Part shown: positions 481-31,943 of the stretch, piece after piece
Layout: each line of letters opens with the position of its first letter
Numbering within the stretch: the first letter of the stretch is position 1
DNA from: Candidatus Methylomirabilota bacterium
Lineage (GTDB): Bacteria > Methylomirabilota > Methylomirabilia > Methylomirabilales > Methylomirabilaceae
Direction of reading: 5' to 3'
Assembly: GCA_003104975.1 (NCBI GenBank)
Contig: PQAM01000019.1
Coordinates: forward strand, 1-32,000
Length of the DNA stretch: 32,000 nt
The notes under the pieces: model-generated
Told to the model about the DNA's origin: nothing
The model's input: only the letters and a program-made list of their open reading frames with translations
Database searches by the model: none
Position numbers and translations under genes: made by a program

Positions 481-1302
481 ATGGCACAATACAGGACGGA
501 AGCCGTACCAGCTAAGCGTGCTGAGACGGCCGAACAGATGTTTGGCTGGGGCATCTTCTGGAAGTGCATGATCGCGATCAGCCTGTTCTACATCTGCATT
601 CGGATTTACCAGCAGTACTTCTCATGGTCGAAGGGTCTCGACTTCTTCTCTGAAGACTTCCGGATCTACTGGTGGAACATGCTCATCGGTGAGCTGATCA
701 TCGAAGGCGCGGTGCTGACCTTCACCTTGGGCTACATCTGGAAGACCCGCGACCGGAACTTGGACAAGATTACACCGGAAGAGGAGTTGAGGCGGTTCTG
801 GGGTCTCGGACAGTGGATTGTCACGTTCGCGTGGGCCGTCTATTGGGGCGCCAGCTTCTTCACCGAGCAGGACGGGACCTGGCACCAGACCGTGATCCGC
901 GATACCGACTTCACGCCGAGTCACATCATCGAGTTCTACCTGAGCTACCCCATTTATATCATCATCGGGATCAATGCGTACATGTGGGCCAGGACCCGAA
1001 TTCCGCTGTTTGCGGCCGGGCACTCCCTGCCGTTCATGCTGACGGTCGGCGGCCCTGCGATGATCTTCGTCAATGTGGCGTTGAACGAGTGGGGCCACAC
1101 CTTCTGGATCATGGAGGAGCTGTTTGTGGCGCCGCTGCACTGGGGTTTCGTGACGCTCGGTTGGTGTCTGTTCGGGGTGTATGGAGTCGCAGCGGCCATG
1201 TGCCCGCGAATCCATGAGCTGATCAAGATCACCAGCGACGGCAAGGCGGCCCAGTGGGCTCCCAATGTCGGCAAGTTGCCGGTCCAGGTTGATAAGTGGT
1301 AA
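481..1302 (+). CDS. pmoC: particulate methane monooxygenase subunit C (PmoC/AmoC family)
   Basis: 273-aa polytopic membrane ORF with AAGGAGG RBS at 465-471. Recognisable PmoC/AmoC sequence including the metal-site stretch EQDGTWHQTVIRDTDFTPSHIIEFY (D-x3-H ... H). First gene of the canonical C-A-B order. Confidence 0.95.
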   Translation: MAQYRTEAVPAKRAETAEQMFGWGIFWKCMIAISLFYICIRIYQQYFSWSKGLDFFSEDFRIYWWNMLIGELIIEGAVLTFTLGYIWKTRDRNLDKITPEEELRRFWGLGQWIVTFAWAVYWGASFFTEQDGTWHQTVIRDTDFTPSHIIEFYLSYPIYIIIGINAYMWARTRIPLFAAGHSLPFMLTVGGPAMIFVNVALNEWGHTFWIMEELFVAPLHWGFVTLGWCLFGVYGVAAAMCPRIHELIKITSDGKAAQWAPNVGKLPVQVDKW

Positions 1303-1332
1303 ACACACTTGAAATCCTCGTAGCCAAATAGT

Positions 1333-1359
1333 GGAGGGGGTGGGGATCCGCCCCCCTCC
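1333..1359 (+). other. GC-rich stem-loop in the pmoC-pmoA spacer
   Basis: GGAGGGGG (1333-1340) pairs with CCCCCTCC (1352-1359). It sits between the pmoC stop and the pmoA RBS. No U-tract, so it is more likely an mRNA stability or processing element than a terminator. Confidence 0.35.
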
Positions 1360-1380
1360 CTTCTCGGAGGGGAAGAGCCT

Positions 1381-2112
1381 ATGGCGCTCTTATCAGTACA
1401 GCAAGCTGCAAGCCTGGAGCGAAAGTTTGATATCATCATCCTCGTAGCCGCCTTTACCGGTACGGTGGCCGGCTATCATATTCACCAGATGCTGACCGTC
1501 GGCGACTGGGACTTCTGGTTGGACTGGAAGGATCGACGCTGGTGGGTCACGTTGACACCGATCCTGTTGATCACCTTCCCCGCGGCGTCGCAATATTTCA
1601 TGTGGGAGAAGATGCGTCTGCCGATCGGTGCGACCTTCTGCATTATGACGCTTCACTTCGGTCAATGGATGAATCGGGTCTTCAACTTCTACTACTGGGC
1701 CTGGTTCCCGGTCAACTTCACCACCCCGGGCCTGATGATCCCCAGCGCGATCTTCCTGGACGTCATGCTGATGATGACCGGGAGCTACATGTTTACCGCG
1801 CTGTTCGGCGGGATGGGGTGGTCGCTGCTGTTCTACCCTGCGAACTGGACCTGGCTGGCGCCGTTCCACCTGGCGGTGAAGCATCCCAGCGGGCCGCTTA
1901 TGTCGATCGCCGATCTGATGGGGATGGAGTATGTGCGCTCCGCGACGCCTGAGTACATTCGGATCGTCGAGCGCGGGACGCTGCGCACCTTCGGACGTGA
2001 CGTCACACCGGTCTCGTCGTTCTTTGCCGGGTTCATCAGCGGGTTAGTTTACGTCTGGTGGATGTTTATGGGGAAGTGGATAAGCAAGCCGACATGGCTC
2101 GCGCGGACCTAG
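1381..2112 (+). CDS. pmoA: particulate methane monooxygenase subunit A (PmoA/AmoA family)
   Basis: 243-aa membrane ORF with strong family resemblance (WDFWLDWKDRRWW, YPANWTWLAPFH, MSIADLMGMEYVRSATPEYIRIVERGTLRTFGRDV). GGAGGGG RBS upstream. Confidence 0.95.
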   Translation: MALLSVQQAASLERKFDIIILVAAFTGTVAGYHIHQMLTVGDWDFWLDWKDRRWWVTLTPILLITFPAASQYFMWEKMRLPIGATFCIMTLHFGQWMNRVFNFYYWAWFPVNFTTPGLMIPSAIFLDVMLMMTGSYMFTALFGGMGWSLLFYPANWTWLAPFHLAVKHPSGPLMSIADLMGMEYVRSATPEYIRIVERGTLRTFGRDVTPVSSFFAGFISGLVYVWWMFMGKWISKPTWLART

Positions 2113-2168
2113 CTGTTTGCGGATCAGTTGACCCTGACCCTTACCCTGAGTGAGGTAGGAGGATAACA

Positions 2169-3440
2169 ATGAGGATAGGACGAGCGGCGTTGTCGGCGAT
2201 CTTACTTGGAGTGATCGCTGTGTCCGCGGGGGGGACGGCGTGGGCCCATGGCGAACGATCACAGGAGCCCTTCCTCCGGATGCGTACGATAACGTTTTAT
2301 GACACCAAGTGGTCGAAGGCCCGGGTACAGCCGGGCGAGACGATGGACCTCACGGGCAAGTTCCATACCTTCAGTGAATGGCCGCGGGCGGTCTATCTCC
2401 CCGAGTCGATCTTTTTGCACTACTCTGTGCCGGGGCCCTCAATGCTGAAGAAAGAGGCATGGATGAACGGCATGCCTGTCATCAACTCCACCAGCACGAA
2501 GCTTGGCGGTGACTACGATTATAAGCTAGCAATTATGGGGCGGGTCACCGGCACCTATCACGTTCACCCGATGGTGAATATCGAGGGTGGCGGCCCCTTG
2601 GTCGGTGGCGGCGAATTTGTCACCGTTGACGGCGACTGGAGTAATTTTACCAACAACGTGACCACCATCGATGGCCAGACGATCGATATGGAAACCCATG
2701 GCCAGGGCCGGATCATCGGCTGGTGGGTGTTGTGGACCATCATCGGGGTCTTCTGGCTGGGTTATTGGGTGGTACGGCCGTTTACGCGGCGCATCTTTAT
2801 GGTTGGGACTGTGCCTGAGGAGGAACTGGTCAGCCCCGGCGACCGCACGGTTGGACTTGTGCTGATGATTGCCACCGTCCTGATCGTGGCCATCGGCTAT
2901 GTGACCACTAACGGCGCCTACCCGATTACGATTCCGTTGCAGACCGGTCGGATGGATGCGCCTGAACTGAGGCCTACGACCGAGTTTACGCCGTATGCCC
3001 ATGCCACTGTGAGGGTCCGACCTGTCACTGCGGTTTATACGGTGCCCGGGCGCTCTCTTGGCATGGTCCTGGAGGTCACGAACGGTTCGAATAGGGCCCA
3101 GCAGTTAGGCGGGTTCATTACGGCTAATCTGCAGTTCCGCGAGCCGGCCCAGTTCCCCGACACGCGGCTCAAGATCAAGGTGGAGCCGGCAGGGCCCATC
3201 GCCCCTGGCCAGACCGCGACGGTTTCGGTTGATGCCACCGATGCGGAGTGGGAATACCAGCGGTTGGCCGAGTTGATCTATGACTCAGACAGCCGGTATG
3301 GTGGACTGCTGGAGTTCTTCGACGCCGACAAGAACCGGCAAATTGTCGAGGTTGGTGGCCCTGTGATCCCGTCCTTTGAGGGTGGCGCCACCGCGCTGAC
3401 TGGCGGTGGTCAGTGGCGACCCACGACCCAGTACAAATAG
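2169..3440 (+). CDS. pmoB: particulate methane monooxygenase subunit B (PmoB/AmoB family)
   Basis: AGGAGG RBS. Signal peptide ...GGTAWA|HGERSQEPFLRMRT gives a mature N-terminal His. H-x-H motif YHVHPMVN. Two central TM helices (IIGWWVLWTIIGVFWLGYWVV; VGLVLMIATVLIVAIGYV). Soluble C-terminal domain. Confidence 0.95.
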   Translation: MRIGRAALSAILLGVIAVSAGGTAWAHGERSQEPFLRMRTITFYDTKWSKARVQPGETMDLTGKFHTFSEWPRAVYLPESIFLHYSVPGPSMLKKEAWMNGMPVINSTSTKLGGDYDYKLAIMGRVTGTYHVHPMVNIEGGGPLVGGGEFVTVDGDWSNFTNNVTTIDGQTIDMETHGQGRIIGWWVLWTIIGVFWLGYWVVRPFTRRIFMVGTVPEEELVSPGDRTVGLVLMIATVLIVAIGYVTTNGAYPITIPLQTGRMDAPELRPTTEFTPYAHATVRVRPVTAVYTVPGRSLGMVLEVTNGSNRAQQLGGFITANLQFREPAQFPDTRLKIKVEPAGPIAPGQTATVSVDATDAEWEYQRLAELIYDSDSRYGGLLEFFDADKNRQIVEVGGPVIPSFEGGATALTGGGQWRPTTQYK

Positions 3441-9470: not shown

Positions 9471-9499
9471 TTGACAGGTCCTACTGAGAAATGTATATT
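9471..9499 (+). promoter_or_regulatory. near-consensus sigma-70 promoter for the PAS-LuxR regulator
   Basis: TTGACA (9471-9476), exactly 17 nt, TATATT (9494-9499). The ORF-track ATG at 9491 falls inside this promoter, which argues for the downstream start at 9683. Confidence 0.5.
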
Positions 9500-9682
9500 G
9501 ATTCCATGGCTCACCCAGGCAACGGACTGAAACGGTCGGGGCGAATCCAACGGGCAGATCGACGGCCTGATGACGGTATCCGTGCAGGCGAGGCGGTCGT
9601 CCGCCATGCCGGTGCAGAAAATAACCGACGGCCTGCGGCTGATGTGACAGGTACACGCAACGAGTCGGGGGGTGGACAGGCG

Positions 9683-10390
9683 ATGGAGCCGCGGGAGGCC
9701 GCCTTCAAACTCTTCGCAGAGACGGCCGATGGCGTATTTATCAGCGCACCGACGGGTGAAATATTGTTCTGCAACTCGGCCGCTGAGACCATTCTGGAAG
9801 CCTCTGCCGAGCAGGTCGTCGGGCAGCAGTGTCGGGAGTTCTTCAACGGTCGTGACAGTAACGGCAATCAGCTTTGCCAGTGGCCGTGTCCGCTCAAGAT
9901 GTCGCTCAGCCGCGGTGACCTGATCCAGCATTTTGAGATGGCTACACGGACCCGGACAGGGAAACCGCTCTGGATCGACGTGAGCTGTGTCGCTCTCCCT
10001 ACCGAGAATAGCCAACCGCCAACCGTTGTTCATCTCTTTCGCGATGTCACAGCCGCGCACCAGCTTGAGGTATTGGTGCGGCAGCAACTGGCTCAGACTC
10101 AGCTCACGATGAGCGAGAAGACGGTTTCTCCCATCGGCGAGCTTACTCGCCGGGAACTGCAGGTGGTCACCCTTATGCGGACCGGTGCAACGACGGCAGC
10201 CATTGCGGAGCAACTCTTCATCAGCAAAACTACCGTGAGAAATCACATCCAGAACATCTTCAGTAAACTCAAGGTCCACTCGAGGCTCGAGGCGGTCGCC
10301 TACGTGAACGAGATGTCGAGGCGAGAGCCGAACCGAACAGAAGCCGGACCGTCATCCGGGGCGGCCAAGGAACCCCACAAGGCTGCATGA
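9683..10390 (+). CDS. one-component transcriptional regulator, PAS sensor domain plus LuxR/FixJ-type HTH
   Basis: PAS-like N-terminus (FKLFAETADGVFISAPTGEILFCNSAAETILE...PLWIDVSCVAL...HLFRDVT). C-terminal LuxR HTH (LTRRELQVVTLMRTGATTAAIAEQLFISKTTVRNHIQNIFSKLKV). No receiver domain. Start set at Met65 of the tracked ORF (9491..10390). Confidence 0.8.
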   Translation: MEPREAAFKLFAETADGVFISAPTGEILFCNSAAETILEASAEQVVGQQCREFFNGRDSNGNQLCQWPCPLKMSLSRGDLIQHFEMATRTRTGKPLWIDVSCVALPTENSQPPTVVHLFRDVTAAHQLEVLVRQQLAQTQLTMSEKTVSPIGELTRRELQVVTLMRTGATTAAIAEQLFISKTTVRNHIQNIFSKLKVHSRLEAVAYVNEMSRREPNRTEAGPSSGAAKEPHKAA

Positions 10391-10604
10391 TGAGTGCGAT
10401 GCGGAACGATTCAGCGAATCGCCGAATGATCACGTGCTCAATACATCGTTATGATGTTCGGGAGACCAGTAGTCCCTTGAACCGTATCCTTTGCCCTGCA
10501 GGGTGGATCAGCGCGTCGCCGTGCGATCGGGTAAACCCCGTTTTAACATTCTGTACGTCCATTACACCACTGCGCCGCTTGAATTACCCATTGCTAGTGC
10601 ATCT

Positions 10605-10640
10605 GCATCATCATATTGAGTCAATCGCAGGATTTACGAG
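10605..10640 (+). repeat. upstream element copy a (nod1 5' region)
   Basis: gcatcatcatattgagtcaatcgcaggatttacgag. It shares GCATC...TTGA...ATCG(C/T)AGGATTTA with copy b, which lies 74 nt downstream. Confidence 0.4.
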
Positions 10641-10678
10641 TCCCGTTTGGGATAGTAAAACTATACCATAGTACATAT

Positions 10679-10714
10679 GCATCCCGGTTTGATTCGATCG
10701 TAGGATTTAGAGAG
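10679..10714 (+). repeat. upstream element copy b (nod1 5' region)
   Basis: gcatcccggtttgattcgatcgtaggatttagagag. By eye it is ~75% identical to copy a with one 1-nt gap, and it is related to 13712-13750 upstream of nod2. Confidence 0.4.
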
Positions 10715-10960
10715 TCTATAGGGGACCGCAGTTATTACCGCCATGGAGGCGTTCCCCATGAATGACAGGATGCAGATCGATAAGCAGCGTAGCGGGCCAT
10801 CGCCTGGTCGACCGGGCATGTGCCGTCGGGCCCGCACCCTGCACGCCGTTCGGGAAGCGCGCGCACCCCCGACGGCCTGGGACACCACGTTCAAGACGGC
10901 ACCGTAATAACAATGCACGAGTGGCTACCTCAAAGCGGGGCAGAGCCACGGGAGGTAACA

Positions 10961-13393
10961 ATGAGTCCTAATCCCAGCGGAAGCGTAAGTAAGGGCAAGA
11001 ACGAGAGGACATTTGCCCAGGCACTACTGATTAAAAAGTATTGGTGGCTTCATGCTTTGATCGTTACTGCCATCAGCGTCATCGGGTTGATCGCACTTGG
11101 CGTCTGGACCTATACCAGCGTCCCCCCGTTGGTCAATTTCGTCTCGTCCAGCGGAGAGGTCGTCATCCCTGAATGGGAAATGCAGCGTGGGAAGCAGGTC
11201 TTCCACCTGAAGGGCCTGATGACCTACGGTTCGTTCTGGGGTGATGGCGCAGAGCGCGGTCCGGACTTCTCGGCCGAGGCCCTGCATCGCACCTTTGTTT
11301 CCATGGGTAAGTACTATGAGCAGCAGATCGAAAAAAGCGGACGCACCGTCACCCAGGACGACCGGGACGGGATCGCGGGCCGCGTGAAGCGCGAGATCCA
11401 CGAGAACGGCTTCGATGCATCGGCCAACGTGATCCGCCTGAACGACGCGCAGATTTTCGCCTATAATGAGTTGATCGAGCACTACACTAAGATGTTCACC
11501 GATTCAACCTATGAAGAAGCCTTCCAGAAGGGCCGAATCCAGAACTTTATCAGCAACCCCGCCGACCTGAAGGCCCTCGCGGGCTACTTCTTCTGGGGCG
11601 GTTGGGTAGCCGGCGCGAATCGGCCGGGTGAGACCTACAGCTACACCCACAACTGGCCGTACGATCCGGATGCCGGCAACCTCCCGACCTATCCGACCTA
11701 TATCTGGAGCTTCCTCTCGCTCTTGGTCCTGTTCGCTGGTACCATGCTGGTGCTGTATGTCTATGGTGAGATGAAGACCCTGCCGGGCGAGCCGTTCAAC
11801 GGTCGCGACTGGTCGCTCACCACGATCGACCTCGAGAACAAGGGTGATGCCTATGTGCGCCCGACCCAGCGCGCAACCTACAAGTTCTTCGCCTTTGCGG
11901 TGATCCTGTTCCTGGTGCAGGTTATCGCGGGTATCATTGCGGCAGAGGATTTCGTGGGTGGCGGTCCGGCTGATGCAGTCCTGAGCGCGATCGGCCTTAC
12001 CATTCCGTTCAGCGTGGCGCGTGGTTGGCATGCCATCGTCCAGATCTACTGGTTCTTCATGGCGTGGACCGGCTACACCCTGTTCTTCTTGCCCCGCATT
12101 TCCAAGGTGCCTAACGGCCAGCGCTTCCTGATTAACCTGCTGTTCACCCTGTGCGTCATCGTCGGCGCCGGCGCCCTGTTCGGCATCTGGATGGGCCACA
12201 CCGGGTATTTCGCCAGCGACGACATGGCCTACTGGTTCGGCAGCCAGGGTTGGGAGTTCCTGGAGCTCGGCCGGTTCTGGCACATCCTGATGCTGGCCTC
12301 GTTTGTGCTGTGGGTCTACATCATCTTCCGCGCCGTCAAGCCCTGGATCACCAGCCAGAACCTCTGGTCCGTTCCGGCTTGGCTGTTCTACGGCAGCGGC
12401 ATCATGGTGCTGTTCCTGTTCTTCGGGATGTTCATGACCCCGTCGCAGAACTTCGCTATCTCCGACTACTGGCGGTGGATGAACATTCATATGTGGGTTG
12501 AGGTAACCTTCGAGGTCTTCACCACCTGTATCGTGGGCTACATGCTGGTTCAGATGGGTCTGGTCAACCGGGCCATGGCCGAGCGGGTTATCTTCCTCGC
12601 CGTCATGATGTTCCTGGTGACCGCCCTGATCGGGATCTCCCACAACTTCTACTGGATCGCCAAGCCGACAGGGATCATCGCCCTGGGTAGCGTCTTCTCC
12701 ACCATGCAGGTGTTGCCGTTGCTCCTGATCACCCTGGATGCCTGGAAGATGCGGACGGAGCGCGCTCGGGCTCACGAGGCTCTGGCCGAGGGCAAGCAGC
12801 GCTTCGTGATGGACGGCGTCTGGACCTTCATCCTGGCCGTCAACTTCTGGAACATCTTCGGTGCGGGCGTGATGGGCTCGCTCATCAACCTGCCGATCGT
12901 CAACTACTATGAGCATGGCACCTATCTGACCGGTAACCATGCCCACGGCGCCATGTTCGGCGTCAAGGGGAACATCGCGATCGCCGGTATGCTCTTCGCG
13001 TGTCAGCACCTGTTCCAGCGCTCTGCCTGGAATGAGAAGCTGATCAAGACCATCTTCTGGAGCCTGCAGATCGGTATCGTGATGATGATGCTCATGGATA
13101 TGTTCCCGATCGGGCTGTATCAGTTGGCCGCGATCTTCCAGCACGGCTTCTGGTATGGCCGCCAGCAGTCCTTCGTCACCAACGAGGTTTGGCACACCCT
13201 GACCTGGCTGCGCGCCATCGGCGGTGTGGTCTTCATGTTCGGTGGCGTCCTGCCTCTCATGTGGTTCATTCTGTCGAGGGGTACTCGGATGGTCCGCGAA
13301 GCCGCCGTCGTTGAGGAGGGTGAGTGGACGATCTACGATCGAGAGAAGGCGAAGGAGCGGGAAGCTTGGGCCGCTTCTGACGAGGCGTTCTAG
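10961..13393 (+). CDS. nod: qNor-like haem-copper oxidase with substituted active site; putative nitric oxide dismutase, paralogue 1
   Basis: GGAGG RBS 10951-10955. 810 aa from ATG 10961 (the ORF track extends to 10820). N-terminal TM helix plus periplasmic domain fused to a 12-TM NorB-like core. HMWVEVTFE (His510, Glu514, Glu518), SHNFYW (His561-Asn562 where NORs have His-His), STMQVLPL (Gln583 where NORs have Glu), NHAHG haem ligands. Confidence 0.85.
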   Translation: MSPNPSGSVSKGKNERTFAQALLIKKYWWLHALIVTAISVIGLIALGVWTYTSVPPLVNFVSSSGEVVIPEWEMQRGKQVFHLKGLMTYGSFWGDGAERGPDFSAEALHRTFVSMGKYYEQQIEKSGRTVTQDDRDGIAGRVKREIHENGFDASANVIRLNDAQIFAYNELIEHYTKMFTDSTYEEAFQKGRIQNFISNPADLKALAGYFFWGGWVAGANRPGETYSYTHNWPYDPDAGNLPTYPTYIWSFLSLLVLFAGTMLVLYVYGEMKTLPGEPFNGRDWSLTTIDLENKGDAYVRPTQRATYKFFAFAVILFLVQVIAGIIAAEDFVGGGPADAVLSAIGLTIPFSVARGWHAIVQIYWFFMAWTGYTLFFLPRISKVPNGQRFLINLLFTLCVIVGAGALFGIWMGHTGYFASDDMAYWFGSQGWEFLELGRFWHILMLASFVLWVYIIFRAVKPWITSQNLWSVPAWLFYGSGIMVLFLFFGMFMTPSQNFAISDYWRWMNIHMWVEVTFEVFTTCIVGYMLVQMGLVNRAMAERVIFLAVMMFLVTALIGISHNFYWIAKPTGIIALGSVFSTMQVLPLLLITLDAWKMRTERARAHEALAEGKQRFVMDGVWTFILAVNFWNIFGAGVMGSLINLPIVNYYEHGTYLTGNHAHGAMFGVKGNIAIAGMLFACQHLFQRSAWNEKLIKTIFWSLQIGIVMMMLMDMFPIGLYQLAAIFQHGFWYGRQQSFVTNEVWHTLTWLRAIGGVVFMFGGVLPLMWFILSRGTRMVREAAVVEEGEWTIYDREKAKEREAWAASDEAF

Positions 13394-13433
13394 TCTCGTT
13401 ACCTACTGCGGTAGGTACGTCATACCTCACGTC

Positions 13434-13476
13434 AATACCCCCCGGTACCGAACGGTACCGGGGGGTATTGTTTTTT
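13434..13476 (+). terminator. intrinsic terminator of nod paralogue 1
   Basis: 16-bp stem AATACCCCCCGGTACC (13434-13449) / GGTACCGGGGGGTATT (13454-13469), loop GAAC, then GTTTTTT. Confidence 0.85.
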
Positions 13477-13711
13477 CGAGTTTCGGGCGTGAAACGCCGA
13501 TTTACCTTCATCACCACCCAGACCAACGCCTCCGTTGACCCTCTAAGCGTTCGAATGCCCACCAACTGCTTCTTCGCCTAAGCCCACGGTCATCCCTAGT
13601 GGTCTCACCCCCAAGCCCTCGGACTTGTTCGGCCTTCAATGTCCTAATGCATTTGCACTAGCCGTCCGTTCGATCAACGAACGCGTGGGCGTCTGGCGTA
13701 GTAGTGCATTC

Positions 13712-13750
13712 GCATCCCAATTTGAGCTGAACATCCGATTGTAGGAGGAG
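13712..13750 (+). repeat. upstream element copy (nod2 5' region)
   Basis: gcatcccaatttgagctgaacatccgattgtaggaggag. It aligns to 10679-10714 (GCATCCC..TTTGA, then TCCGATTGTAGGA versus TTCGATCGTAGGA) with an 8-nt insertion. Confidence 0.35.
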
Positions 13751-14033
13751 AAAAAGGTGTCTACATTTTGTCTGAAGTTCATTTTTAGAATCTCGGAGGG
13801 ACGGTAAGACATGAACCTGGGGTGGTGTGGAGGTAGTACGAAGCGCCGGCGCGGTCGTCCGGTGGCAGGGCGGCGCTACGCGGCTCGGTTGAATGAATCC
13901 CGTCATACGCCTCGCGAAGCGCGGGCTCCTCCCGTTGCGGGGCTTTGGCCCGGTCACAAAGAGGGGAGTTGGTGACACACAAAGCATTGCAAGTGCAGTA
14001 GCTGTAATGAAGCGTAACATATAGGAGGTTGTT

Positions 14034-16460
14034 ATGAGTCCCATCCCGAGCGATATGGTAAGCAAGCCCCATAAGACGTTCGGCCAAATGCTGTTAGTGA
14101 AAAAATATTGGTGGCTCCATGCGGCGATTGTCACAGGTATCAGCCTTATCGGTTTGGTCGCGCTTGGCGTCTGGACCTACACGTCGGCCCCACCGTTGAC
14201 CAATTTTGTGTCGTCGTCCACCGGGGAGACGGTGATACCTGAGTGGGAGATCCAGCGCGGCAAACAGGTATTTCACCTCAAGGGGCTCATGACCTACGGC
14301 TCGTTCTGGGGTGACGGCGGCGAACGGGGCCCGGATTTTACGGCCGAAGCTCTCCATCATACATACGTCTCCATGAACAAATACTACGAGAATGAGATCG
14401 CAAAGGAGCGCCCTGTCACGCAAGCCGATCGCGACATGATCGCGATGAGGGTACGACGTGAGATTCGAGAGAATGGGTACGACGAGGCCGCCAACGTGAT
14501 TCGAATCAATCCGGCGCAGGCTTTTGCGTATCAGGAGTTGATCACCCATTACACGAAGATGTTTACGGATGCTACCTATGAAGAAGCCTTTATGAAGGGC
14601 AGGATCAAGAATCATATCAGCGACCCGGCCGACCTGAAGGCCCTCGCGGGGTACTTCTTCTGGGGTGGTTGGGTTTCCGGGGCGAACCGGCCAGGTTTTG
14701 ACTACAGTTATACCCACAACTGGCCGCCCGATCCGGCGGTCGGCAATACTCCGACATTCGAGACCTACCTCTGGAGTTTCATTTCGATCTTCGTCCTGTT
14801 CTGCGGCACGATGCTGGTCCTGTACGTCTACGGCGAGATGAAGACCCTGCCGGGCGAGCCGTTCAACGGGCGAGATTGGTCGCTGACCACCGTCGATCTG
14901 GAGAATAAAGGCGATGCCTATGTGCGCCCGACCCAGCGCGCCACCTACAAGTTCTTCGCCTTTGCGGTCATCCTGTTCCTGGTGCAGGTCCTGGCGGGTA
15001 TCCTGAGCGCCGAGGATTTTGTGGGCGGCGGACCGGGCAGCGCCATCGCCACCACGGTGTTGGGATTCACCATCCCATTCACTGTGACCCGCGGCTGGCA
15101 TACCATCGTCCAGATCTACTGGTTCTTCATGGCGTGGGTCGGCTACACCCTGTTCTTCTTGCCCCGCATTTCCAAGGTGCCTAACGGTCAGCGCTTCCTG
15201 ATCAACCTGCTGTTCACCCTGTGCGTCATCGTCGGCGCCGGCGCCCTGTTCGGCATCTATCTCGGACATACGGGTTACATGAGCGACGACATGGCCTACT
15301 GGTTCGGCAGCCAGGGTTGGGAATTCCTGGAGCTCGGCCGGTTCTGGCACATCCTGATGCTGGCCTCGTTCTGTCTGTGGGTCTACATCATCTTCCGCGC
15401 CGTCAAGCCCTGGATCACCAGCCAGAACCTCTGGTCCGTTCCGGCCTGGCTGTTCTATGGCAGCGGCATCATGGTGCTGTTCCTGTTCTTCGGGATGTTC
15501 ATGACCCCGTCGCAGAACTTCGCGATTGCGGATTACTGGCGGTGGATGAACATTCATATGTGGGTTGAGGTAACCTTCGAGGTCTTCACCACCTGTATTG
15601 TGGGCTACATGCTGGTTCAGATGGGTCTGGTCAACCGGGCCATGGCCGAGCGGGTTATCTTCCTCGCCGTCATGATGTTCCTGGTGACCGCCCTGATCGG
15701 GATCTCCCACAACTTCTACTGGATCGCCAAGCCGACAGGGATCATCGCCCTGGGTAGCGTCTTCTCCACCATGCAGGTGTTGCCGTTGCTCCTGATCACC
15801 CTGGATGCCTGGAAGATGCGGACGGAGCGGGTGAAGGCCTATGAAAACGTTGCCGAGGGCAAGCAGCGCTTCGTGATGGACGGCGTCTGGACCTTCATCC
15901 TGGCCGTCAACTTCTGGAATATATTCGGCGCGGGCGTCTTCGGCTCGTTGATCAACCTGCCGATCGTCAACTACTATGAGCATGGCACCTATCTGACCGG
16001 TAACCATGCCCATGCCGCCATGTTCGGCGTCAAGGGGAACATCGCGATCGCCGGTATGCTCTTCGCGTGTCAGCACCTGTTCCAGCGCTCTGCCTGGAAT
16101 GAGAAGCTGATCAAGGGTATCTTCTGGTCGCTGCAGGTCGGCCTGGTGCTGATGATGATGTTGGATCTGTTCCCGGTCGGGCTCTATCAGGTCGCCACAG
16201 TCTTCAAGCAAGGCCTCTGGGCCGCCAGAGCGCAGGCGCACGTGACGGACAACGTCTGGATCACCTTGACCTGGATGCGGACCGTCGGTGGGGCGATCTT
16301 CCTCTTTGGCGGTGTCTTGCCTCTGGTCTATTTCATCCTGTCACGGGCGGGGCGAATGGTCCGCGAGGCGGCTGCTGTTGAAGAGGGTGAGTGGACCATC
16401 TACGATAAAGAGAAGGCCAAGGAGCGGGCTGCCTGGGCGGCCGGCGACGAGGCGTTCTAA
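14034..16460 (+). CDS. nod: qNor-like haem-copper oxidase with substituted active site; putative nitric oxide dismutase, paralogue 2
   Basis: TAGGAGG RBS. 808 aa with the same architecture as paralogue 1. HMWVEVTFE, SHNFYW (His559-Asn560, CAC AAC 15708-15713), STMQVLPL (Gln581, CAG 15774-15776), NHAHA. Confidence 0.85.
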   Translation: MSPIPSDMVSKPHKTFGQMLLVKKYWWLHAAIVTGISLIGLVALGVWTYTSAPPLTNFVSSSTGETVIPEWEIQRGKQVFHLKGLMTYGSFWGDGGERGPDFTAEALHHTYVSMNKYYENEIAKERPVTQADRDMIAMRVRREIRENGYDEAANVIRINPAQAFAYQELITHYTKMFTDATYEEAFMKGRIKNHISDPADLKALAGYFFWGGWVSGANRPGFDYSYTHNWPPDPAVGNTPTFETYLWSFISIFVLFCGTMLVLYVYGEMKTLPGEPFNGRDWSLTTVDLENKGDAYVRPTQRATYKFFAFAVILFLVQVLAGILSAEDFVGGGPGSAIATTVLGFTIPFTVTRGWHTIVQIYWFFMAWVGYTLFFLPRISKVPNGQRFLINLLFTLCVIVGAGALFGIYLGHTGYMSDDMAYWFGSQGWEFLELGRFWHILMLASFCLWVYIIFRAVKPWITSQNLWSVPAWLFYGSGIMVLFLFFGMFMTPSQNFAIADYWRWMNIHMWVEVTFEVFTTCIVGYMLVQMGLVNRAMAERVIFLAVMMFLVTALIGISHNFYWIAKPTGIIALGSVFSTMQVLPLLLITLDAWKMRTERVKAYENVAEGKQRFVMDGVWTFILAVNFWNIFGAGVFGSLINLPIVNYYEHGTYLTGNHAHAAMFGVKGNIAIAGMLFACQHLFQRSAWNEKLIKGIFWSLQVGLVLMMMLDLFPVGLYQVATVFKQGLWAARAQAHVTDNVWITLTWMRTVGGAIFLFGGVLPLVYFILSRAGRMVREAAAVEEGEWTIYDKEKAKERAAWAAGDEAF

Positions 16461-16496
16461 TCTGAGGAGTTAGGCAGGTACGTCTCGCTTGACTCG

Positions 16497-16536
16497 GATA
16501 CCCCCCGGTATAATCAACCTTGTACCGGGGGGTATC
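16497..16536 (+). terminator. hairpin after nod paralogue 2 (probable terminator, homologous to 13434-13476)
   Basis: GATACCCCCCGGTA (16497-16510) / TACCGGGGGGTATC (16523-16536) with a 12-nt loop, followed by a weak T-rich tract GCTTGTTGTG. It lies between convergent nod2 and nadE. Confidence 0.55.
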
Positions 16537-16558
16537 GCTTGTTGTGCGCGCGACGGTG

Positions 16559-17380
16559 TTACTTACCCCAGTCGCGGGGATAGCGGAAGTCGCGGTCGAT
16601 GGTACGGGCAGAGATCTTGGCAATGAGGGGGAGGCGTCGCTTGTACTGGGAGGCCTGGACCCTGGCGAGGACGGTTCGGACAAATCGCTCATCGAAGCCG
16701 TTCGCGATCATCTCGGAAATCTCGTATCGGCGGTCGATCATGAGATAGAGCACTTGGTCGACCTCTTCGTACGTAAAGCCGAGTTCCGTCTCGTCGGTCT
16801 GTCCGACCCAGAGATCACCGCTGGGCGCCTTTCCAATGATGGCCTCCGGAACGCCCATATGGCGCGCCAGTTGCCGCACCTGGCTCTTATACAGATCGCC
16901 CAGCGGGTTGATGGCGCTGGCCATGTCTCCGTACAGTGTACCGTACCCCAGGAGTAACTCGGTTTTATTGCTGGTCCCTAATACCAGGGCATTCAGCCTG
17001 GCCGAATAATCGAACAGGATGGTCATTCGCTCGCGCGCCATCTTGTTGCCCCGGCGTACCTGATCGGCATCCTGGAGCCGTCCGAAGTAGGCGTCTACCA
17101 TCGGGGTAATATCGATGATATCGGATTGGATTCCTAACTGCGTGACCACCAGTTCGGCGTGCGCTCGGCTGTCCGGACTGCTGGTTCGGTATGGCATCAG
17201 GAGGGCCCAGACGTTCTCGCCGCCAAGCGCTTCGGCAGCGAGATATGCGGACAACGCGGAATCGACCCCACCCGATAACCCGATGACAACCCGGCTGAAA
17301 CCGGTCTTTCGTACCTCGTTGGTAATGAATCCGGTCAGGATCTGTTGAACAAATGCGCAGTGCAGGGAGAGACGGATCAT
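16559..17380 (-). CDS. nadE: NAD+ synthetase (NadE, ATP-pyrophosphatase domain)
   Basis: P-loop GLSGGVDSA. Family-typical [20 protein letters not shown]. Start set at ATG 17380, forming an ATGA overlap with the upstream stop. The ORF track extends to 17419. Confidence 0.85.
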
Positions 17381-19157: not shown

Positions 19158-21638
19158 TCAACACAGATCGACCGGATCGACGTCGATCTCAATCCCGGCC
19201 TGTTCTGTCGGTGGAAGCTGCGCAATCGTCCCTTTGACCCAGTGCAAGAGCCTATCCTGGTCGTGACCTTTGGCGAGGATCTGCCATCGATAGCGGTCCT
19301 GTAATCGATAGATCGGCGCCGGTGCGGGTCCCTCAACGGCAAGTGGGGGGGACGCCCCCCCCAGAAGCAGACCGGTCAGTTGCTCGGCCCGCGCTTGCGC
19401 TTGTCCCTCGTGCGTAGAGGCAACCAGGAGCAGAATAAGAGAGCCAAAGGGCGGAAGGCCGCGTTTCTCCCGAAGGGGCCGCTCGATCCGGTAGAGCGCC
19501 TCATAATCGTGGTGACGGGCTGCGAGGATACAATAGTGTTCAGGGTTGTAGGTCTGGACAATGACATGGCCGGGGCGGTCGCCACGACCGGCGCGACCGG
19601 CTACCTGCGTCAGCAGCGCAAAGGTTCGCTCGCCGGCTCGGAAATCCGGGATCTGCATCGAGACATCGGCCGAGAGGATGCCGACCAGGGTGATGCCGGG
19701 GAAGTCGTGTCCCTTTCCGACCATCTGTGTGCCGATCAGAATCTGTGTGCGCCGCTGCTGCATATCCCCGAGGATCTGTCGGTGTGCCTGCCGCCTTCGG
19801 GTGGTATCGCGATCCATCCTGACGATCGAGACGTCCGGGACCAGGAGTCGAGCGGCGGCCTCGACCTGCTGTGTCCCGTAGCCGAGCCACCCGCAGGCGA
19901 TCCCGCCGCACTGAGGACAACCCGTCGGCGGCCGCTGCCGATAATCGCAGTAGTGGCAGCGCATCCTGGCGTCGACGGCATGGTAGATGAGCGAGACACT
20001 GCAGTGAGGGCACCGCAACGTAAAGCCGCACTCCCGGCAGAGCAGCACCCTGGCGTACCCTCGTCGATTGATGAACAGCAGGACCTGCTCGCCCTTCGCC
20101 AGCGTCTCCTTGATCGCCTCAGCCAGTCGTTGTGAAAAGATCAGCGGGGCACCGCGCTCTGTCCGCCTCGCGCGCTCTTGACGCATATCGACCAGTTCTA
20201 TCGACGGGAGCGGCCTGTTGTGGACCCGCTCAGGGAGGAGGAACGGCCGGTAGATCCCCTCCTTCGCCCGATGAAGGGTTTCGAAGCTGGGGGTTGCAGA
20301 CCCGAGAAGGACGGGAATCCCAAGCATTCGCCCCCTGACCAATGCCACGTCCCGGGCGTGGTAGCGCGGCTCTTCCTGTTGCTTATAGGAGGTATCATGC
20401 TCTTCATCCACAACGATCAGGCCAAGGCGCGAGAGGGGTGCGAACACGGCAGAACGGGCGCCCACGACGATATCGGCCGTCCCGCGCCTGATGCGGTACC
20501 ACTGATCCAGCCGCTCGCCCGGCGAAAGGCCGCTGTGCAGCAGCGCGACGCGTTCGCCGAAGCGGGCGCGAAATCGATCGGCCGTCACCGGGGTCAGGGC
20601 GATTTCCGGAACGAGTACCAGCGCCTGCCGTCCCTGTCGTACCGCCTCGCCGATCACCCGAAGATAGACCTCGGTCTTTCCGCTTCCCGTCGCGCCGTAG
20701 AGTAGTGCCGGACAAAACGTCTGTGAGGACAGGCCTGCCAACAGCCCATCAACCGCGGCGCGCTGTGCCGAATTGAGTTGGGGGCAGGCGTCGGCGACTA
20801 TCGCGCCCTTGTCCCATGGCGACCGCTCGACCGCCTCAGTCGTGCGGCGGATCAGTCCCTTAGCGAGGAGGCTGCGCACGCCGGAGGCTCCGGCAATGGC
20901 CGTCGCCTCCGCAGATGTCAGCGATGAGCCGGATTGGAGGAGCCGATCGAGCAACGAGGCCTGTCGTGGTGCGCGGTCTTTGAGGCGGGCCCATCCCGCC
21001 TCCGCTGCCGTCCGGTCGATCGCCAGACTCAATACGGGTCGTACGACGGGCCGAACCGAAGGACGACGTTCCTGGTATTCGATTCTGGCCAGGTTCTGTC
21101 TGATGAGCAGGCGAATCAGTCGATCAACCGCTTCGCCGGGCCACCGCCGTTTGAGCGATGACAGCGCGATTCGACGTTGCGCCTGCAGAACGGTGAGAAT
21201 CTGCTGCTGAGTCGGGTCGAGTGGGCCGACCGCTCCGGCGTGGTCCGCCGCGATACCCGCGCGCGAGAACAGATCCGACGGTTCGATCAACTGAACCGTC
21301 CGTATCGTCCCGCGATCGATCCCGGGCGGCAGCGCCGTACGAATCACCGGCCCCCACGAGGTCACGTAATAGTCCGCGACATGGCGCGTCAGTTCGAGCA
21401 TATGTTGATCGAGCAGCGGTTCAGGATCGAGGATCGCCTCAATCGACTTCAGATCTGAAGGATCGGTTGGCGCAGGAGTGCGAAGGCCGACGATATATCC
21501 GGTGACCAGGCGGGGACCGAGCGGGACAAGTGCTCGCTTACCGACCCCGACCTGTATATGGAGCGAGGGCGGAACCGCATAGGTCAGGATGCTTCGAGGT
21601 GGAACCGGCAGGGCGATTTCAGCGGCGATCCGGCTCAA
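19158..21638 (-). CDS. priA: primosomal protein N' (replication restart helicase PriA)
   Basis: Walker A GATGSGKTEVYL, DEEHD box, Cys-rich zinc module CRECGFTLRCPHCSVSLIYH...CHYCDY...CPQCGG. Apparent TTG start overlaps the upstream stop (TTGA). Confidence 0.9.
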   Translation of the reverse strand: MSRIAAEIALPVPPRSILTYAVPPSLHIQVGVGKRALVPLGPRLVTGYIVGLRTPAPTDPSDLKSIEAILDPEPLLDQHMLELTRHVADYYVTSWGPVIRTALPPGIDRGTIRTVQLIEPSDLFSRAGIAADHAGAVGPLDPTQQQILTVLQAQRRIALSSLKRRWPGEAVDRLIRLLIRQNLARIEYQERRPSVRPVVRPVLSLAIDRTAAEAGWARLKDRAPRQASLLDRLLQSGSSLTSAEATAIAGASGVRSLLAKGLIRRTTEAVERSPWDKGAIVADACPQLNSAQRAAVDGLLAGLSSQTFCPALLYGATGSGKTEVYLRVIGEAVRQGRQALVLVPEIALTPVTADRFRARFGERVALLHSGLSPGERLDQWYRIRRGTADIVVGARSAVFAPLSRLGLIVVDEEHDTSYKQQEEPRYHARDVALVRGRMLGIPVLLGSATPSFETLHRAKEGIYRPFLLPERVHNRPLPSIELVDMRQERARRTERGAPLIFSQRLAEAIKETLAKGEQVLLFINRRGYARVLLCRECGFTLRCPHCSVSLIYHAVDARMRCHYCDYRQRPPTGCPQCGGIACGWLGYGTQQVEAAARLLVPDVSIVRMDRDTTRRRQAHRQILGDMQQRRTQILIGTQMVGKGHDFPGITLVGILSADVSMQIPDFRAGERTFALLTQVAGRAGRGDRPGHVIVQTYNPEHYCILAARHHDYEALYRIERPLREKRGLPPFGSLILLLVASTHEGQAQARAEQLTGLLLGGASPPLAVEGPAPAPIYRLQDRYRWQILAKGHDQDRLLHWVKGTIAQLPPTEQAGIEIDVDPVDLC

Positions 21639-22309
21639 TGCGCTGTGCTCGCCTGAGGCGCGCGGACCAGCACGTCGTATGCCGGACTGTCCTTGAGTTT
21701 TGACGATGTAGCGGTCAAATCGGCCGTCTCCTTGAGCGTGGCAGTAACGGCCCTCGGCGGCTGCGCTGAGACCAGACCAAAGGCGTAGGTACTGTCGCCA
21801 CGGACGCCGGACGGCCCGGCGCAGACAGGAGAGTCAAAGTACACGATGAACCTGTTGGTCCACCCGTGCACGTGGTCGATGCCGATCTTTCCCGGACCGC
21901 CGTCGGTCACGACATAGATCAGATCTCCGGCCTGTCCATCGCCATTGTAATCCAGGGTGTCGACGATGGGACCGAACTCAAGCGCCATGGTCCGTAGACA
22001 CGGCATGTGCGTCGTCGCAACAGCCTGTTCGAGATTGATCCGGTACTCATAGCCGTACAGCCCGGCCGCCGGCGTGCCGGGCTTCCCTGCGAAGGTGCGA
22101 GACTCGATGAAGGCCGTTCCCTCGACCTGCATCGGGATCGGTGCGGTGCTGCTCTCGATCGTGGTCACCTTGCACGAGGGATCGAAGAGACAGTAGACGG
22201 CCGGAGAGCCGACCGTGACGGTTGCCAGATGGGTGTCGCCCTTCCGGCACCCCGCGGCAAAGGCTAGAGTCAGCACCACAGCGATGAGAACGGGCACTCG
22301 CGCGGCCAT
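21635..22309 (-). CDS. lipoprotein of unknown function (paralogue A)
   Basis: Lipobox LAFAAGC. Conserved blocks shared with 22372..23106: VYCLFDPSC, ESRTFAGKPGTPAAGLYGYEYRI, GPIVDTLDYNGDGQ (D-x-N-x-D-G Ca-binding-like loop), FGLVS..PPR. Confidence 0.75.
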   Translation of the reverse strand: MAARVPVLIAVVLTLAFAAGCRKGDTHLATVTVGSPAVYCLFDPSCKVTTIESSTAPIPMQVEGTAFIESRTFAGKPGTPAAGLYGYEYRINLEQAVATTHMPCLRTMALEFGPIVDTLDYNGDGQAGDLIYVVTDGGPGKIGIDHVHGWTNRFIVYFDSPVCAGPSGVRGDSTYAFGLVSAQPPRAVTATLKETADLTATSSKLKDSPAYDVLVRAPQASTAH

Positions 22310-22371
22310 CCCCCGTTCCCCTCCTTTCGCTAATCAGACACCAACAGGCTACTTTGATCCCGGAATGAATC

Positions 22372-23106
22372 TTAAAGGCCTTCAGAACGATCCGACTTGC
22401 TACCCTCCGTGTCTATTTGAGGCGCATAGACATCTACGTGATATTTAATATTTTTCTTCATTTTCGGCGAGGCGGCGCCCAAACCGGCCGTCTCCTTGAT
22501 GGTCGCATCGACGAGCCTCGGCGGTTTGGTGGAGACCAGGCCAAAGAAAAAGGTGCTGTCGCCCGGATGATTCTGTCCCCCGACACAGATAGGGGAGTCG
22601 AAATTAAATGTCAGCCTGCCGTGAAACCGCTGTACGAATCCGAGGCTGGCTTTTCCAGGACCGCCCTGGCTGACGACATAGATCAGTTCGTCGGTCTGCC
22701 CATCGCCATTGTAATCCAGGGTATCGACGATGGGACCGAAATCAAAGATGATCGATGACAGGCACGGCATATACTTGACCTTCCCGAACTCCTCGACCTC
22801 GACCACAGTCTCTGCCCCCTGCTCGAGATCGATCCGGTATTCATAGCCGTACAGACCGGCCGCCGGCGTACCGGGCTTCCCCGCGAAGGTGCGGGACTCC
22901 ACAACCGCCTTACCCATGATCTCCATTGGGATAGGCACAGTGCTGCTGTTGGTAACGGCAACCGCACAGGATGGATCGAAGAGACAATAAACGGTTGACG
23001 CGCTGACCTTGACCTTTTTAAGATTCATGTCGGATTTCATCCGACAACCTGCAATGAAGGCTGCACTCAGCATGACACCCACAAGGATGAGTACCCTTCC
23101 AGTCAT
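22372..23106 (-). CDS. lipoprotein of unknown function (paralogue B)
   Basis: Start set at ATG 23106 (MTGRVLILVGVMLSAAFIAGC lipobox; GGGGGA about 9 nt upstream). The ORF track extends to 23229. Tandem paralogue of 21635..22309. Confidence 0.75.
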   Translation of the reverse strand: MTGRVLILVGVMLSAAFIAGCRMKSDMNLKKVKVSASTVYCLFDPSCAVAVTNSSTVPIPMEIMGKAVVESRTFAGKPGTPAAGLYGYEYRIDLEQGAETVVEVEEFGKVKYMPCLSSIIFDFGPIVDTLDYNGDGQTDELIYVVSQGGPGKASLGFVQRFHGRLTFNFDSPICVGGQNHPGDSTFFFGLVSTKPPRLVDATIKETAGLGAASPKMKKNIKYHVDVYAPQIDTEGSKSDRSEGL

Positions 23107-23200
23107 CCCATGTTCCCCCTTTCTCCTGTAATTGTGTCGTAACGTACACATCTCGGCGCGCTTTGTGATCGTTCCAGACGTGTTGTTGCTCAGATCGTGC

Positions 23201-30299: not shown

Positions 30300-31943
30300 A
30301 TGGCGACAAAGGCAACGTTGGCATTATTGACCCTTGCGCTTGGGATGCTATGGACCGTTCCGGCGCAAGCCCAGCCGGCCAAACCGGCCGAGCTTCCACC
30401 GCCTCCACCGCTGGCGAGTGGTGAGCTAGAGAGCGCCAAGCAGATCTATTTCGACCGGTGCGCCGGCTGTCACGGAGTCCTGAGAAAAGGCGCAACGGGC
30501 CCGCAGCTTCTGCCGGCGAAAACTCGTGCGTTAACCACCCCGGTGCTGAAGGCGTTTATCGTGAACGGGACAGGCGGCGGCATGCCGGACTGGGGCCGGC
30601 AAGGCATTCTTACGGATGCTGAAGCCGATCTGATGGCCCGCTACATCCAGCACGACCCGCCGGTGCCACCCGAGTTGCCCCTGGCGGAGATGAAAAAGAG
30701 TTGGAACCTGATCGTACCGCCGGACAAGCGACCCACAAAGCCCGAACACAACCGCGACTGGCAGGACTTTTTCGCCGTGACCCTGCGTGACGCCGGTCAG
30801 GTAGCCATCATCGACGGCAAGACCAAGGAGATCGTCAACACCGTCAAGACCGGCTTTGCGGTGCATATCTCGCGCAGCTCATTCTCGGGGCGCTATGTCT
30901 ACACCATCGGCCGCGATGGGCGGGCGACCATGATCGACCTGTGGATGAAGGTTCCGGATAAGGTCGCAGAGGTGAAGCCATGCAGCGATGCGCGCTCTAT
31001 TGACACGAGTAAGTATAAAGGAAAGCTCGGCGACTTCACCGACAAGCTGGCGGTCATCGGCTGCTATTGGCCACCGCAGTTCATCGTGTTGGACGGGGGC
31101 ACGCTGGAGCCGATAAAGGTCGTCAGCACCCGGAGCATGACCTACGATACGATGGAGTACCACCAGGAGCCCCGGGTCGCCTCGATCGTGGCCTCGCACT
31201 TCAAGCCTGAGTGGGTCATCAACATCAAGGAGACCGGGCTGATCTGGCTGGTCGATTACTCGGACCTCAAGAACCTGAAGATGACCCAGATCCAGGGCGA
31301 GAAGTTTCTCCACGACGGCGGCTGGGATGCCAGCAAGCGGTATTTCATGGTGGCGGCCAACATGGCGAACAAGGTGGTCGTGATCGACGTCGAGAAAGGC
31401 AAACTGGAGGCGATCTTCGAATCCGGGATCAAACCTCATCCCGGGCGCGGCGCCAACTGGATCGATCCGAAGTACGGTCCGGTGAACGGTACCCCGCATC
31501 TCGGTGAGGGCAAGGTCACTGTTTACGGCACCGATCCGGCCAAGCACAAGGAGTATGCCTGGAAAAAGGTGCGAGAGATCAAGACGCTGGGAGGCGGGGG
31601 CCTGTTTATCAAGACGCACCCGAAGAGCGAGAATGTCTGGGTAGATCACGCCCTGAACGGCGACCCGGCCATTCAAAAGCAGGTCTGCGTCTTCAAGAAG
31701 GCGAATCCGGAGAAAGAGCCGACGTGCTGGAAGGTGTCGGACAAGGGGCGCGCCGTGCACTTCGAGTACAACAAGGCCGGCACCGAGGTGTGGATCAGTG
31801 TGTGGGGGAAGAAAGACGGCAAGAGCGAGGTTGTCGTCTATGACGATAAGACGCTCAAAGAGGTAGCCAGGATCGACGACCCGCGCATTATCACGCCGAC
31901 CGGTAAGTTTAACGTCTACAACACGATGAAGGACATCTATTAA
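30300..31943 (+). CDS. nirS: cytochrome cd1 nitrite reductase (NO-forming)
   Basis: AAGGAG RBS. Sec signal ...VPAQA|QP. Haem c site C54-A-G-C-H58. d1-domain sequence FAVHISRSSFSGRYVYTIGRDGRATMIDLW and following beta-propeller-type repeats. Confidence 0.93.
   Translation: MATKATLALLTLALGMLWTVPAQAQPAKPAELPPPPPLASGELESAKQIYFDRCAGCHGVLRKGATGPQLLPAKTRALTTPVLKAFIVNGTGGGMPDWGRQGILTDAEADLMARYIQHDPPVPPELPLAEMKKSWNLIVPPDKRPTKPEHNRDWQDFFAVTLRDAGQVAIIDGKTKEIVNTVKTGFAVHISRSSFSGRYVYTIGRDGRATMIDLWMKVPDKVAEVKPCSDARSIDTSKYKGKLGDFTDKLAVIGCYWPPQFIVLDGGTLEPIKVVSTRSMTYDTMEYHQEPRVASIVASHFKPEWVINIKETGLIWLVDYSDLKNLKMTQIQGEKFLHDGGWDASKRYFMVAANMANKVVVIDVEKGKLEAIFESGIKPHPGRGANWIDPKYGPVNGTPHLGEGKVTVYGTDPAKHKEYAWKKVREIKTLGGGGLFIKTHPKSENVWVDHALNGDPAIQKQVCVFKKANPEKEPTCWKVSDKGRAVHFEYNKAGTEVWISVWGKKDGKSEVVVYDDKTLKEVARIDDPRIITPTGKFNVYNTMKDIY

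Follow-up and report, generated by a model that had tools for sequence, protein, structure and literature searches.

The analysed stretch of DNA, positions 1 to 32,000 of contig PQAM01000019.1 from a Methylomirabilota bacterium (hereafter the window), contains two tandem genes for putative nitric oxide (NO) dismutases (NOD; gene, nod). Paralogue A (10961..13393, + strand) encodes 810 aa and matches PWB42344.1 exactly, and paralogue B (14034..16460, + strand) encodes 808 aa and matches PWB42345.1 exactly. The deposited source of both proteins is an NC10/Methylomirabilota metagenome-assembled genome (MAG). The two paralogues are 84% identical.

The ATG start of nod A at 10961 is preceded by GGGAGG. 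A GTG at 10820 was rejected as the start, since ATG 10961 has the ribosome-binding site, the N-terminus of DAMO_2437 and the exact match to the deposited protein. Antisense open reading frames (ORFs) within nod (11504-13195 and 14094-16241, - strand) and frame-shifted + strand ORFs (12151-12501 and 15221-15568) were not accepted as genes; they recur elsewhere only because they overlap nod.

ORF A shared 90.5% identity with CBE69502 (DAMO_2437) of Candidatus Methylomirabilis oxyfera. ORF B shared 94.1% identity with the 808-aa M. oxyfera paralogue (DAMO_2434, CBE69496) and 95.5% with the M. lanthanidiphila protein. The 90% clusters of A and B include CBE69502, proteins of M. lanthanidiphila and sequences entered as 'putative nitric oxide dismutase'. 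In a neighbour-joining distance tree, rooted on three solved quinol-dependent NO reductases (qNORs) and without bootstrap support, A grouped with CBE69502 and B with the 808-aa M. oxyfera paralogue. The two formed separate orthologue clades, apart from the three canonical qNORs. Each clade holds several Methylomirabilis genomes, and therefore the duplication is older than their divergence. Both paralogues were kept in all Methylomirabilis genomes examined.

A preliminary description of the window had assigned both ORFs to the nod candidates of M. oxyfera. This assignment is backed by the identities, by the clades and by the synteny with the M. oxyfera genome (FP565575) described below. The gene pair consists of the orthologues of NOD2 (DAMO_2437; paralogue A) and NOD1 (DAMO_2434; paralogue B) in another Methylomirabilota (NC10) genome. 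It is already known, having been published in 2010-2012, and the window holds one more Methylomirabilota MAG copy of the type locus. Versantvoort et al. 2018 (PMC6094997) showed that M. lanthanidiphila and M. limnetica have conserved the pair as well. In length, architecture and signature substitutions, A and B resemble NOD1 and NOD2 of M. oxyfera as well as the orthologues from species such as M. lanthanidiphila and M. limnetica, and the M. oxyfera pair has its tandem order and flanking genes in common with the window. Compared with M. oxyfera, the window comes from a lineage distinct at species level, and the amino-acid sequences differ by about 6-10%.

Pfam detected a NorB_cytochrome_c-like domain (PF22085) followed by COX1 (PF00115) in both NOD proteins, and NCBIfam returned no family for A or B. 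No CxxCH motif was found in either protein. No norC-like ORF was found in the 32-kb window, and its sole cytochrome c domain lies within NirS (30300-31943). An AlphaFold2 (AF2) model of NOD A, built with 49 homologues as input, reached a predicted local distance difference test score (pLDDT) of 81 and a predicted template modelling score (pTM) of 0.85. In NOD A, an N-terminal transmembrane (TM) helix precedes a cytochrome-c-like domain that lacks haem, and a NorB core of 13 helices follows. Of the 1 + 12 TM helices given in the preliminary description, the single N-terminal helix stands, whereas the core count is corrected by the 14 long helices (1 + 13) of the model.

The model aligned with the Geobacillus qNOR structure 3AYF over 785 columns with TM scores of 0.83 (query) and 0.89 (target). 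In the structural ranking, 3AYF came first, followed by the Alcaligenes and Neisseria qNORs, the NorB of cytochrome-c-dependent NO reductases (cNORs), and cbb3 oxidases. The best PDB sequence match of NOD A was also 3AYF (HMMER, E=9e-131). Both proteins are qNOR-derived membrane haem proteins with the qNOR fold. The full quinol-NOR architecture noted earlier was confirmed by the Pfam domains, the absent CxxCH motif and the AF2 fold, and the reported lack of a nearby norC held across the 32-kb window.

To place individual residues, column homology was established with HMMER against the solved qNORs 3AYF, 6FWF and 9WYL and with an independent 134-sequence MAFFT alignment, and the results agreed. 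Geobacillus qNOR (3AYF) numbering is marked Gs. For conservation counts, 129 database homologues with identities of 61% or more were used.

The third His of the non-haem metal site (FeB), Gs His560, is replaced by Asn in both paralogues. The corresponding codon pairs (CAC AAC, within SHNFYW) encode His561-Asn562 of A at 12641..12646 (+) and His559-Asn560 of B at 15708..15713 (+). Asn occupies this column in 128/129 homologues, and the metal site is changed from three His plus Glu to two His, Asn and Glu. The catalytic or proton-delivery Glu, Gs Glu581, is replaced by Gln583 in A (CAG, STMQVLPL; 12707..12709, +) and Gln581 in B (CAG, STMQVLPL; 15774..15776, +), and Gln was found here in all 129 homologues. 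Neither protein thus has the three-His plus Glu FeB site and the Glu581 equivalent of a canonical qNOR.

The quinol site is likewise altered. Its remnant reads AEDFVGGGP at 11942..11968 (+) in A, where Gs His328 and Glu332 have become Glu329 and Gly333, and at 15009..15035 (+) in B, where they have become Glu327 and Gly331. The quinol-binding Gs Asp746 corresponds to Gly755 of A (13223..13225, +) and Gly753 of B (16290-16292, +), with coordinates computed from the residue numbers; Gly occurs in this column in 126/129 homologues. All three quinol-binding residues are therefore replaced in A and B, and the quinol site of a canonical qNOR (EC 1.7.5.2) is absent from both. The His, Glu and Asp quinol residues and the canonical His560 and Glu581 are present in 3/3 solved qNORs. 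Since the signature is fixed in 128-129 of the 129 homologues, it is a family trait rather than a product of chance or of sequencing error. In 29 more columns, the solved qNORs, with only three comparators, agree on one residue and NOD is fixed for another; examples are Gly513->Val, Trp505->Met and Tyr660->Lys.

The remaining cofactor ligands are retained. The FeB block HMWVEVTFE lies at 12488..12514 (+) in A, with His510, Glu514 and Glu518 equivalent to Gs His508, Glu512 and Glu516, and an equivalent block lies at 15555-15581 (+) in B. The FeB ligands Gs His508, Glu512 and His559 are kept as His510, Glu514 and His561 in A and as His508, Glu512 and His559 in B. The haem ligands Gs His355, His651 and His653 correspond to His357, His660 and His662 of A and are kept in B as well. 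RGWH and NHAH(G/A) motifs are present in both proteins, whereas DAMO_2437 reads RSYH in place of RGWH. His357, His660, His662, His510, Glu514 and His561 (A numbering) were invariant in 129/129 homologues. Judged from these residues, haem b, haem b3 and the non-haem metal should still be bound by the qNOR scaffold of A and B.

These results bear out what had been read from the window initially, namely His->Asn in the His-His pair, Glu->Gln, a quinol-site segment (A/S)AEDFVGGGP without His, and retention of the haem ligands and the first metal block. The Asn, Gln and quinol-site residues fall in homologous columns of the solved qNORs, with Asp746->Gly as an additional change, and every ORF, motif and codon coordinate given earlier checked out. 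The three changes are those by which Ettwig et al. 2012 defined putative NOD (PMC3413370). Their definition comprises a qNOR fold with 14 TM helices, a haem-less hydrophilic domain, conservation of all but one histidine, His->Asn, Glu->Gln and loss of the quinol site (PMC3413370). The His->Asn change at the non-haem metal site is also named as NOD-defining in a 2024 review (PMC11549561).

In that review the signature Asn of CBE69502.1 is called N564, and the alignment here gives 562 (SHNFYW = 560-565). The H358 and H662 of the review do match histidines in CBE69502, and N564 looks like a small numbering discrepancy in PMC11549561.

Compared with known systems, qNOR/NorZ enzymes (3AYF; N. meningitidis 6L3H/6FWF; A. 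xylosoxidans 6QQ5/8BGW) have the same fold as NOD (TM scores 0.81-0.83 query, 0.88-0.90 target). They share the 14 helices, the haem-less cytochrome-c-like domain, the haem b and b3 His, two FeB His, Glu512 and Glu516. However, identity is only 27-31%, and NOD carries Asn at the third FeB His, Gln at Glu581 and Glu/Gly/Gly at His328/Glu332/Asp746. The NorB of cNOR (P. aeruginosa 3O0R, Roseobacter 4XYD) has a homologous core at the level of E-value (about 1e-26) and fold (target TM score 0.83-0.85). cNOR consists of separate NorB and haem-c NorC subunits, whereas NOD has a fused haem-less NorC-like domain, and the adjacent haem-c NorC gene of a NorBC system is absent from the window.

The window contains further genes of the proposed pathway on the same strand. 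pmoC (481-1302), pmoA (1381-2112) and pmoB (2169-3440) form a cluster at 481..3440 (+) for particulate methane monooxygenase (pMMO), the proposed O2 consumer. nirS (30300..31943, +) encodes cytochrome cd1 nitrite reductase, the proposed NO source. pmoCAB lies 7.5 kb upstream of the nod pair and nirS 14 kb downstream, so that the proposed O2 consumer, O2 producer and NO producer are all located within 32 kb.

In M. oxyfera FP565575 (locus L080), the upstream order is the same as in the window: pmoCAB, a hypothetical gene, ftsH, a porin, a PAS-GerE regulator, nod and nod. The downstream order is also the same, with NAD synthase, CN hydrolase, a methyltransferase and PriA. M. oxyfera inserts about 3.5 kb between the second nod and NAD synthase (L080:15893-19174), whereas the window has about 100 bp there (16460-16559). 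The insert encodes a monohaem cytochrome c of 126 aa along with a Tll0287-like protein, both missing from the window; therefore, NOD does not require this cytochrome c as a partner.

Following Ettwig et al. 2010 and 2012, the best explanation for the pair is an electron-independent reaction, 2 NO -> N2 + O2, that feeds pMMO, and we consider it moderately probable. NirS would supply the NO. Because the quinol site is lost and the proton path weakened, the enzyme would take no external electrons. Two NO molecules would bind at the haem b3/non-haem metal centre, where an N-N bond would form. N2 and O2 would be released rather than N2O and H2O, and pMMO would activate methane with the O2. The preference for this reaction rests on organism-level physiology from the literature, on the fixed signature and on the pmo-nod-nirS clustering. 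M. oxyfera forms N2 and little N2O, and an N2O reductase cannot be identified in it (PMC3413370; PMC6094997). NO-linked regulators that adjoin nod in other phyla (Rrf2/NsrR-like, CRP/FNR-like and NnrS-like) were also counted in its favour.

Chlorite dismutase (Cld) offers a functional analogy only, as a case of proposed electron-neutral, haem-dependent O-O bond formation that yields O2 in the dark. Cld belongs to an unrelated soluble family, acts on another substrate and is biochemically proven, whereas NOD activity is putative.

Neighbouring genes were compared across 79 other nod loci, with gene names judged by eye from the sequences. No universal nod partner gene was found among them. A MORN-repeat protein gene lies upstream of nod on the opposite strand in 29 loci, and a 2x[4Fe-4S]-type ferredoxin gene lies upstream on the same strand in 25/80. 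A cytochrome b561 gene was found near nod in 15/80 loci. Rrf2/NsrR-like and CRP/FNR-like regulators (10 loci each), NnrS-like proteins (12) and a ferritin-like di-iron protein (12) also recurred. These recurrent neighbours are lineage-restricted (loci L003-L079), and none of them occurs in the window. Elbon et al. (bioRxiv 10.1101/2023.11.21.568154) had reported most of them before.

Several points weigh against dismutation. No variation was seen in either ligand of the low-spin electron-transfer haem b, which is unexpected if no electron input is needed. The ferredoxin and cytochrome b561 genes, often encoded at proteobacterial nod loci, may provide electron donors. Elbon et al. (bioRxiv 10.1101/2023.11.21.568154) point out that N2O is made by foraminifera in which Nod is expressed, and O2 is also made from NO by organisms without nod (PMC11549561). 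Ettwig et al. 2012 termed the dismutase role speculation until purification (PMC3413370). The preliminary description gave the activity as not yet shown with purified protein, which agrees with two publications of 2024, a review and a preprint, that describe NOD as lacking biochemical and structural characterisation (PMC11549561; Elbon et al., bioRxiv 10.1101/2023.11.21.568154); no later characterisation was found in the literature to mid-2026. The PDB held no NOD structure (April 2026), and its nearest entries were qNORs of 27-31% identity.

Some of the same observations bear on the main alternative, in which A and B are still NO reductases (2 NO + 2 e- + 2 H+ -> N2O + H2O) that use a non-canonical donor and act mainly in NO detoxification. 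The donor could be another quinol pocket, ferredoxin, cytochrome b561 or a small cytochrome c. The invariant haem b ligands, the recurrence of ferredoxin and cytochrome b561 genes near proteobacterial nod, the N2O from foraminifera with Nod and the cytochrome c gene just downstream of DAMO_2434 in M. oxyfera are all consistent with it. NsrR-type regulators next to nod in other phyla suggest a nitrosative-stress role. However, that cytochrome c gene is absent from the window, where NAD synthase directly follows nod B, and the nod loci do not all share any one partner gene. The His->Asn and Glu->Gln changes, fixed family-wide, concern positions that have been implicated in catalysis by NORs. Furthermore, M. 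oxyfera makes N2 and little N2O without an N2O reductase, and it already has canonical qNOR, sNOR and gNOR (PMC3413370; PMC6094997). A reductase role is in our judgement rather unlikely.

A dismutation with other products was also weighed, either 4 NO -> 2 N2O + O2, as proposed for Nitrosopumilus, or the passing of a bound oxidant to pMMO with N2 formed later. Methylomirabilis has no identifiable N2O reductase for converting N2O to the observed N2 (PMC3413370; PMC6094997), and the known N2O + O2 makers do not have nod (PMC11549561). We think other products very unlikely, although a route to N2O + O2 exists in nature (PMC11549561), the Nod products in oxygen-deficient zones have been called uncertain (bioRxiv 10.1101/2023.11.21.568154) and nod lies close to pmoCAB.

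The family is subject to strong purifying selection, hundreds of its columns being invariant, among them those of all cofactor ligands, and both paralogues are retained as orthologous pairs across Methylomirabilis species. This argues that NOD is not an NO buffer, a sensor or a decayed paralogue. In such a case NOD would not be the source of O2 and N2, and pMMO would use NO directly or another enzyme would act. Among the alternatives that Ettwig et al. listed and could not discard is that pMMO uses NO directly (PMC3413370), and the link between NOD and O2 is one of genomic and expression correlation only. However, nod is very highly expressed and the pMMO sequence is canonical (PMC3413370), and we hold this account to be highly improbable.

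If NO dismutation is true, organisms have in it a separate means of making O2, and it shortens denitrification by bypassing N2O. It would also let Methylomirabilis oxidise methane "aerobically" without external oxygen. NOD enzymology has been widely discussed since 2010-2012, and the window makes this chemistry no more testable than published genomes do.

The two nod genes were compared codon by codon within and between genomes. At codons ~361-600 and 661-690, the paralogues within one genome are 94-100% identical at the nucleotide level, and A and B share a 230-nt perfect match. The core nucleotide distance between A and B was 0.040, compared to 0.081-0.093 from each to the M. oxyfera genes. 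The N- and C-terminal flanks instead group by orthology, with distances of 0.12-0.20 within an orthologue group versus 0.24-0.27 between groups. The same core and flank pattern was found within M. oxyfera and within locus L002. These distances indicate that the catalytic cores of the two paralogues are homogenised by gene conversion, or concerted evolution. The predicted tract in A covers codons ~361-690 (12041..13030, +), is patchy with a core at 361-600, and includes the FeB/haem b3 site; its partner in B lies at ~15111-16097 (+). A literature search found no paper with both 'gene conversion' and 'Methylomirabilis'.

It is at the periphery that the paralogues have diverged: in the N-terminal and cytochrome-c-like domain, in helix II, in the loop of the former quinol site and in the two last helices. 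They may be non-redundant, either as a NOD1/NOD2 heterodimer or as isoenzymes that share their chemistry and differ in partners or regulation, under a dedicated Cys-containing PAS-LuxR sensor of NO or O2 that accompanies nod in several phyla. A heterodimer fits because solved qNORs can be dimeric, the periphery is diverged and the core is repeatedly converted, but we regard this proposal as quite unlikely. Concerted evolution of the core may bias nod amplicon phylogenies, and it bears on the choice of the protein or proteins to purify. What the window adds is an independent check of a signature fixed across about 130 homologues, a compact pmoCAB-nod-nod-nirS arrangement and concerted paralogue cores, which is a modest contribution.

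A PAS and LuxR/GerE regulator gene (9491..10390, +) lies directly upstream of nod A, and the same position is occupied in M. oxyfera. In 15 loci from Methylomirabilota, Bdellovibrionota, Proteobacteria and others, including L080:8430-9430, L002:4883-5779, L003:9135-9800, L036:9344-9886 and 10 more, a relative of this regulator precedes nod by 79-530 nt and is encoded on the same strand. The sensor domain contains three invariant Cys (C114, C129 and C133, window numbering) and probably a fourth. The association of LuxR with nod was already noted by Elbon et al. with "connection unclear" (bioRxiv 10.1101/2023.11.21.568154). The Cys-containing PAS-LuxR protein is a candidate NO/O2-sensing regulator of nod, and the nod paralogues are probably controlled by it.

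A hairpin with the 17-bp stem ATACCCCCCGGTA followed by TTTTTT was found 40 nt past the nod A stop (13433..13470, +) and is a likely intrinsic terminator. A hairpin with the same stem follows the nod B stop, likewise at a distance of about 40 nt (16497..16536, +), and has no clear T-run. The stem occurs nowhere else in the window, nor in the M. oxyfera, L002, L047, L001, L020 and L081 loci. Because each nod gene has its own hairpin, the two paralogues are probably separate transcription units. A sigma-70 promoter scan returned no site at 10300-16700, and Rfam gave no match in the window.

Other ORFs of the window were without assignment. A 258-aa ORF right after pmoB (3693-4469, +) had no Pfam or NCBIfam match, and a 254-aa gene occupies the equivalent post-pmoB position in M. 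oxyfera (L080:2808-3572). Three consecutive ORFs of 224, 285 and 328 aa (21635-24187, - strand), located between PriA and a uracil-DNA glycosylase-family gene, had no confident family match; two of them showed sub-threshold FG-GAP repeat matches only.

Among the other loci, L002 (DATMXF010000229.1) and L020 (JAHFCR010000151.1) carry nod genes 86-90% identical and a Methylomirabilis-like synteny. These contigs were deposited in MAGs named 'Patescibacteria group bacterium' and 'Peptococcaceae bacterium', respectively, which are probably binning errors.

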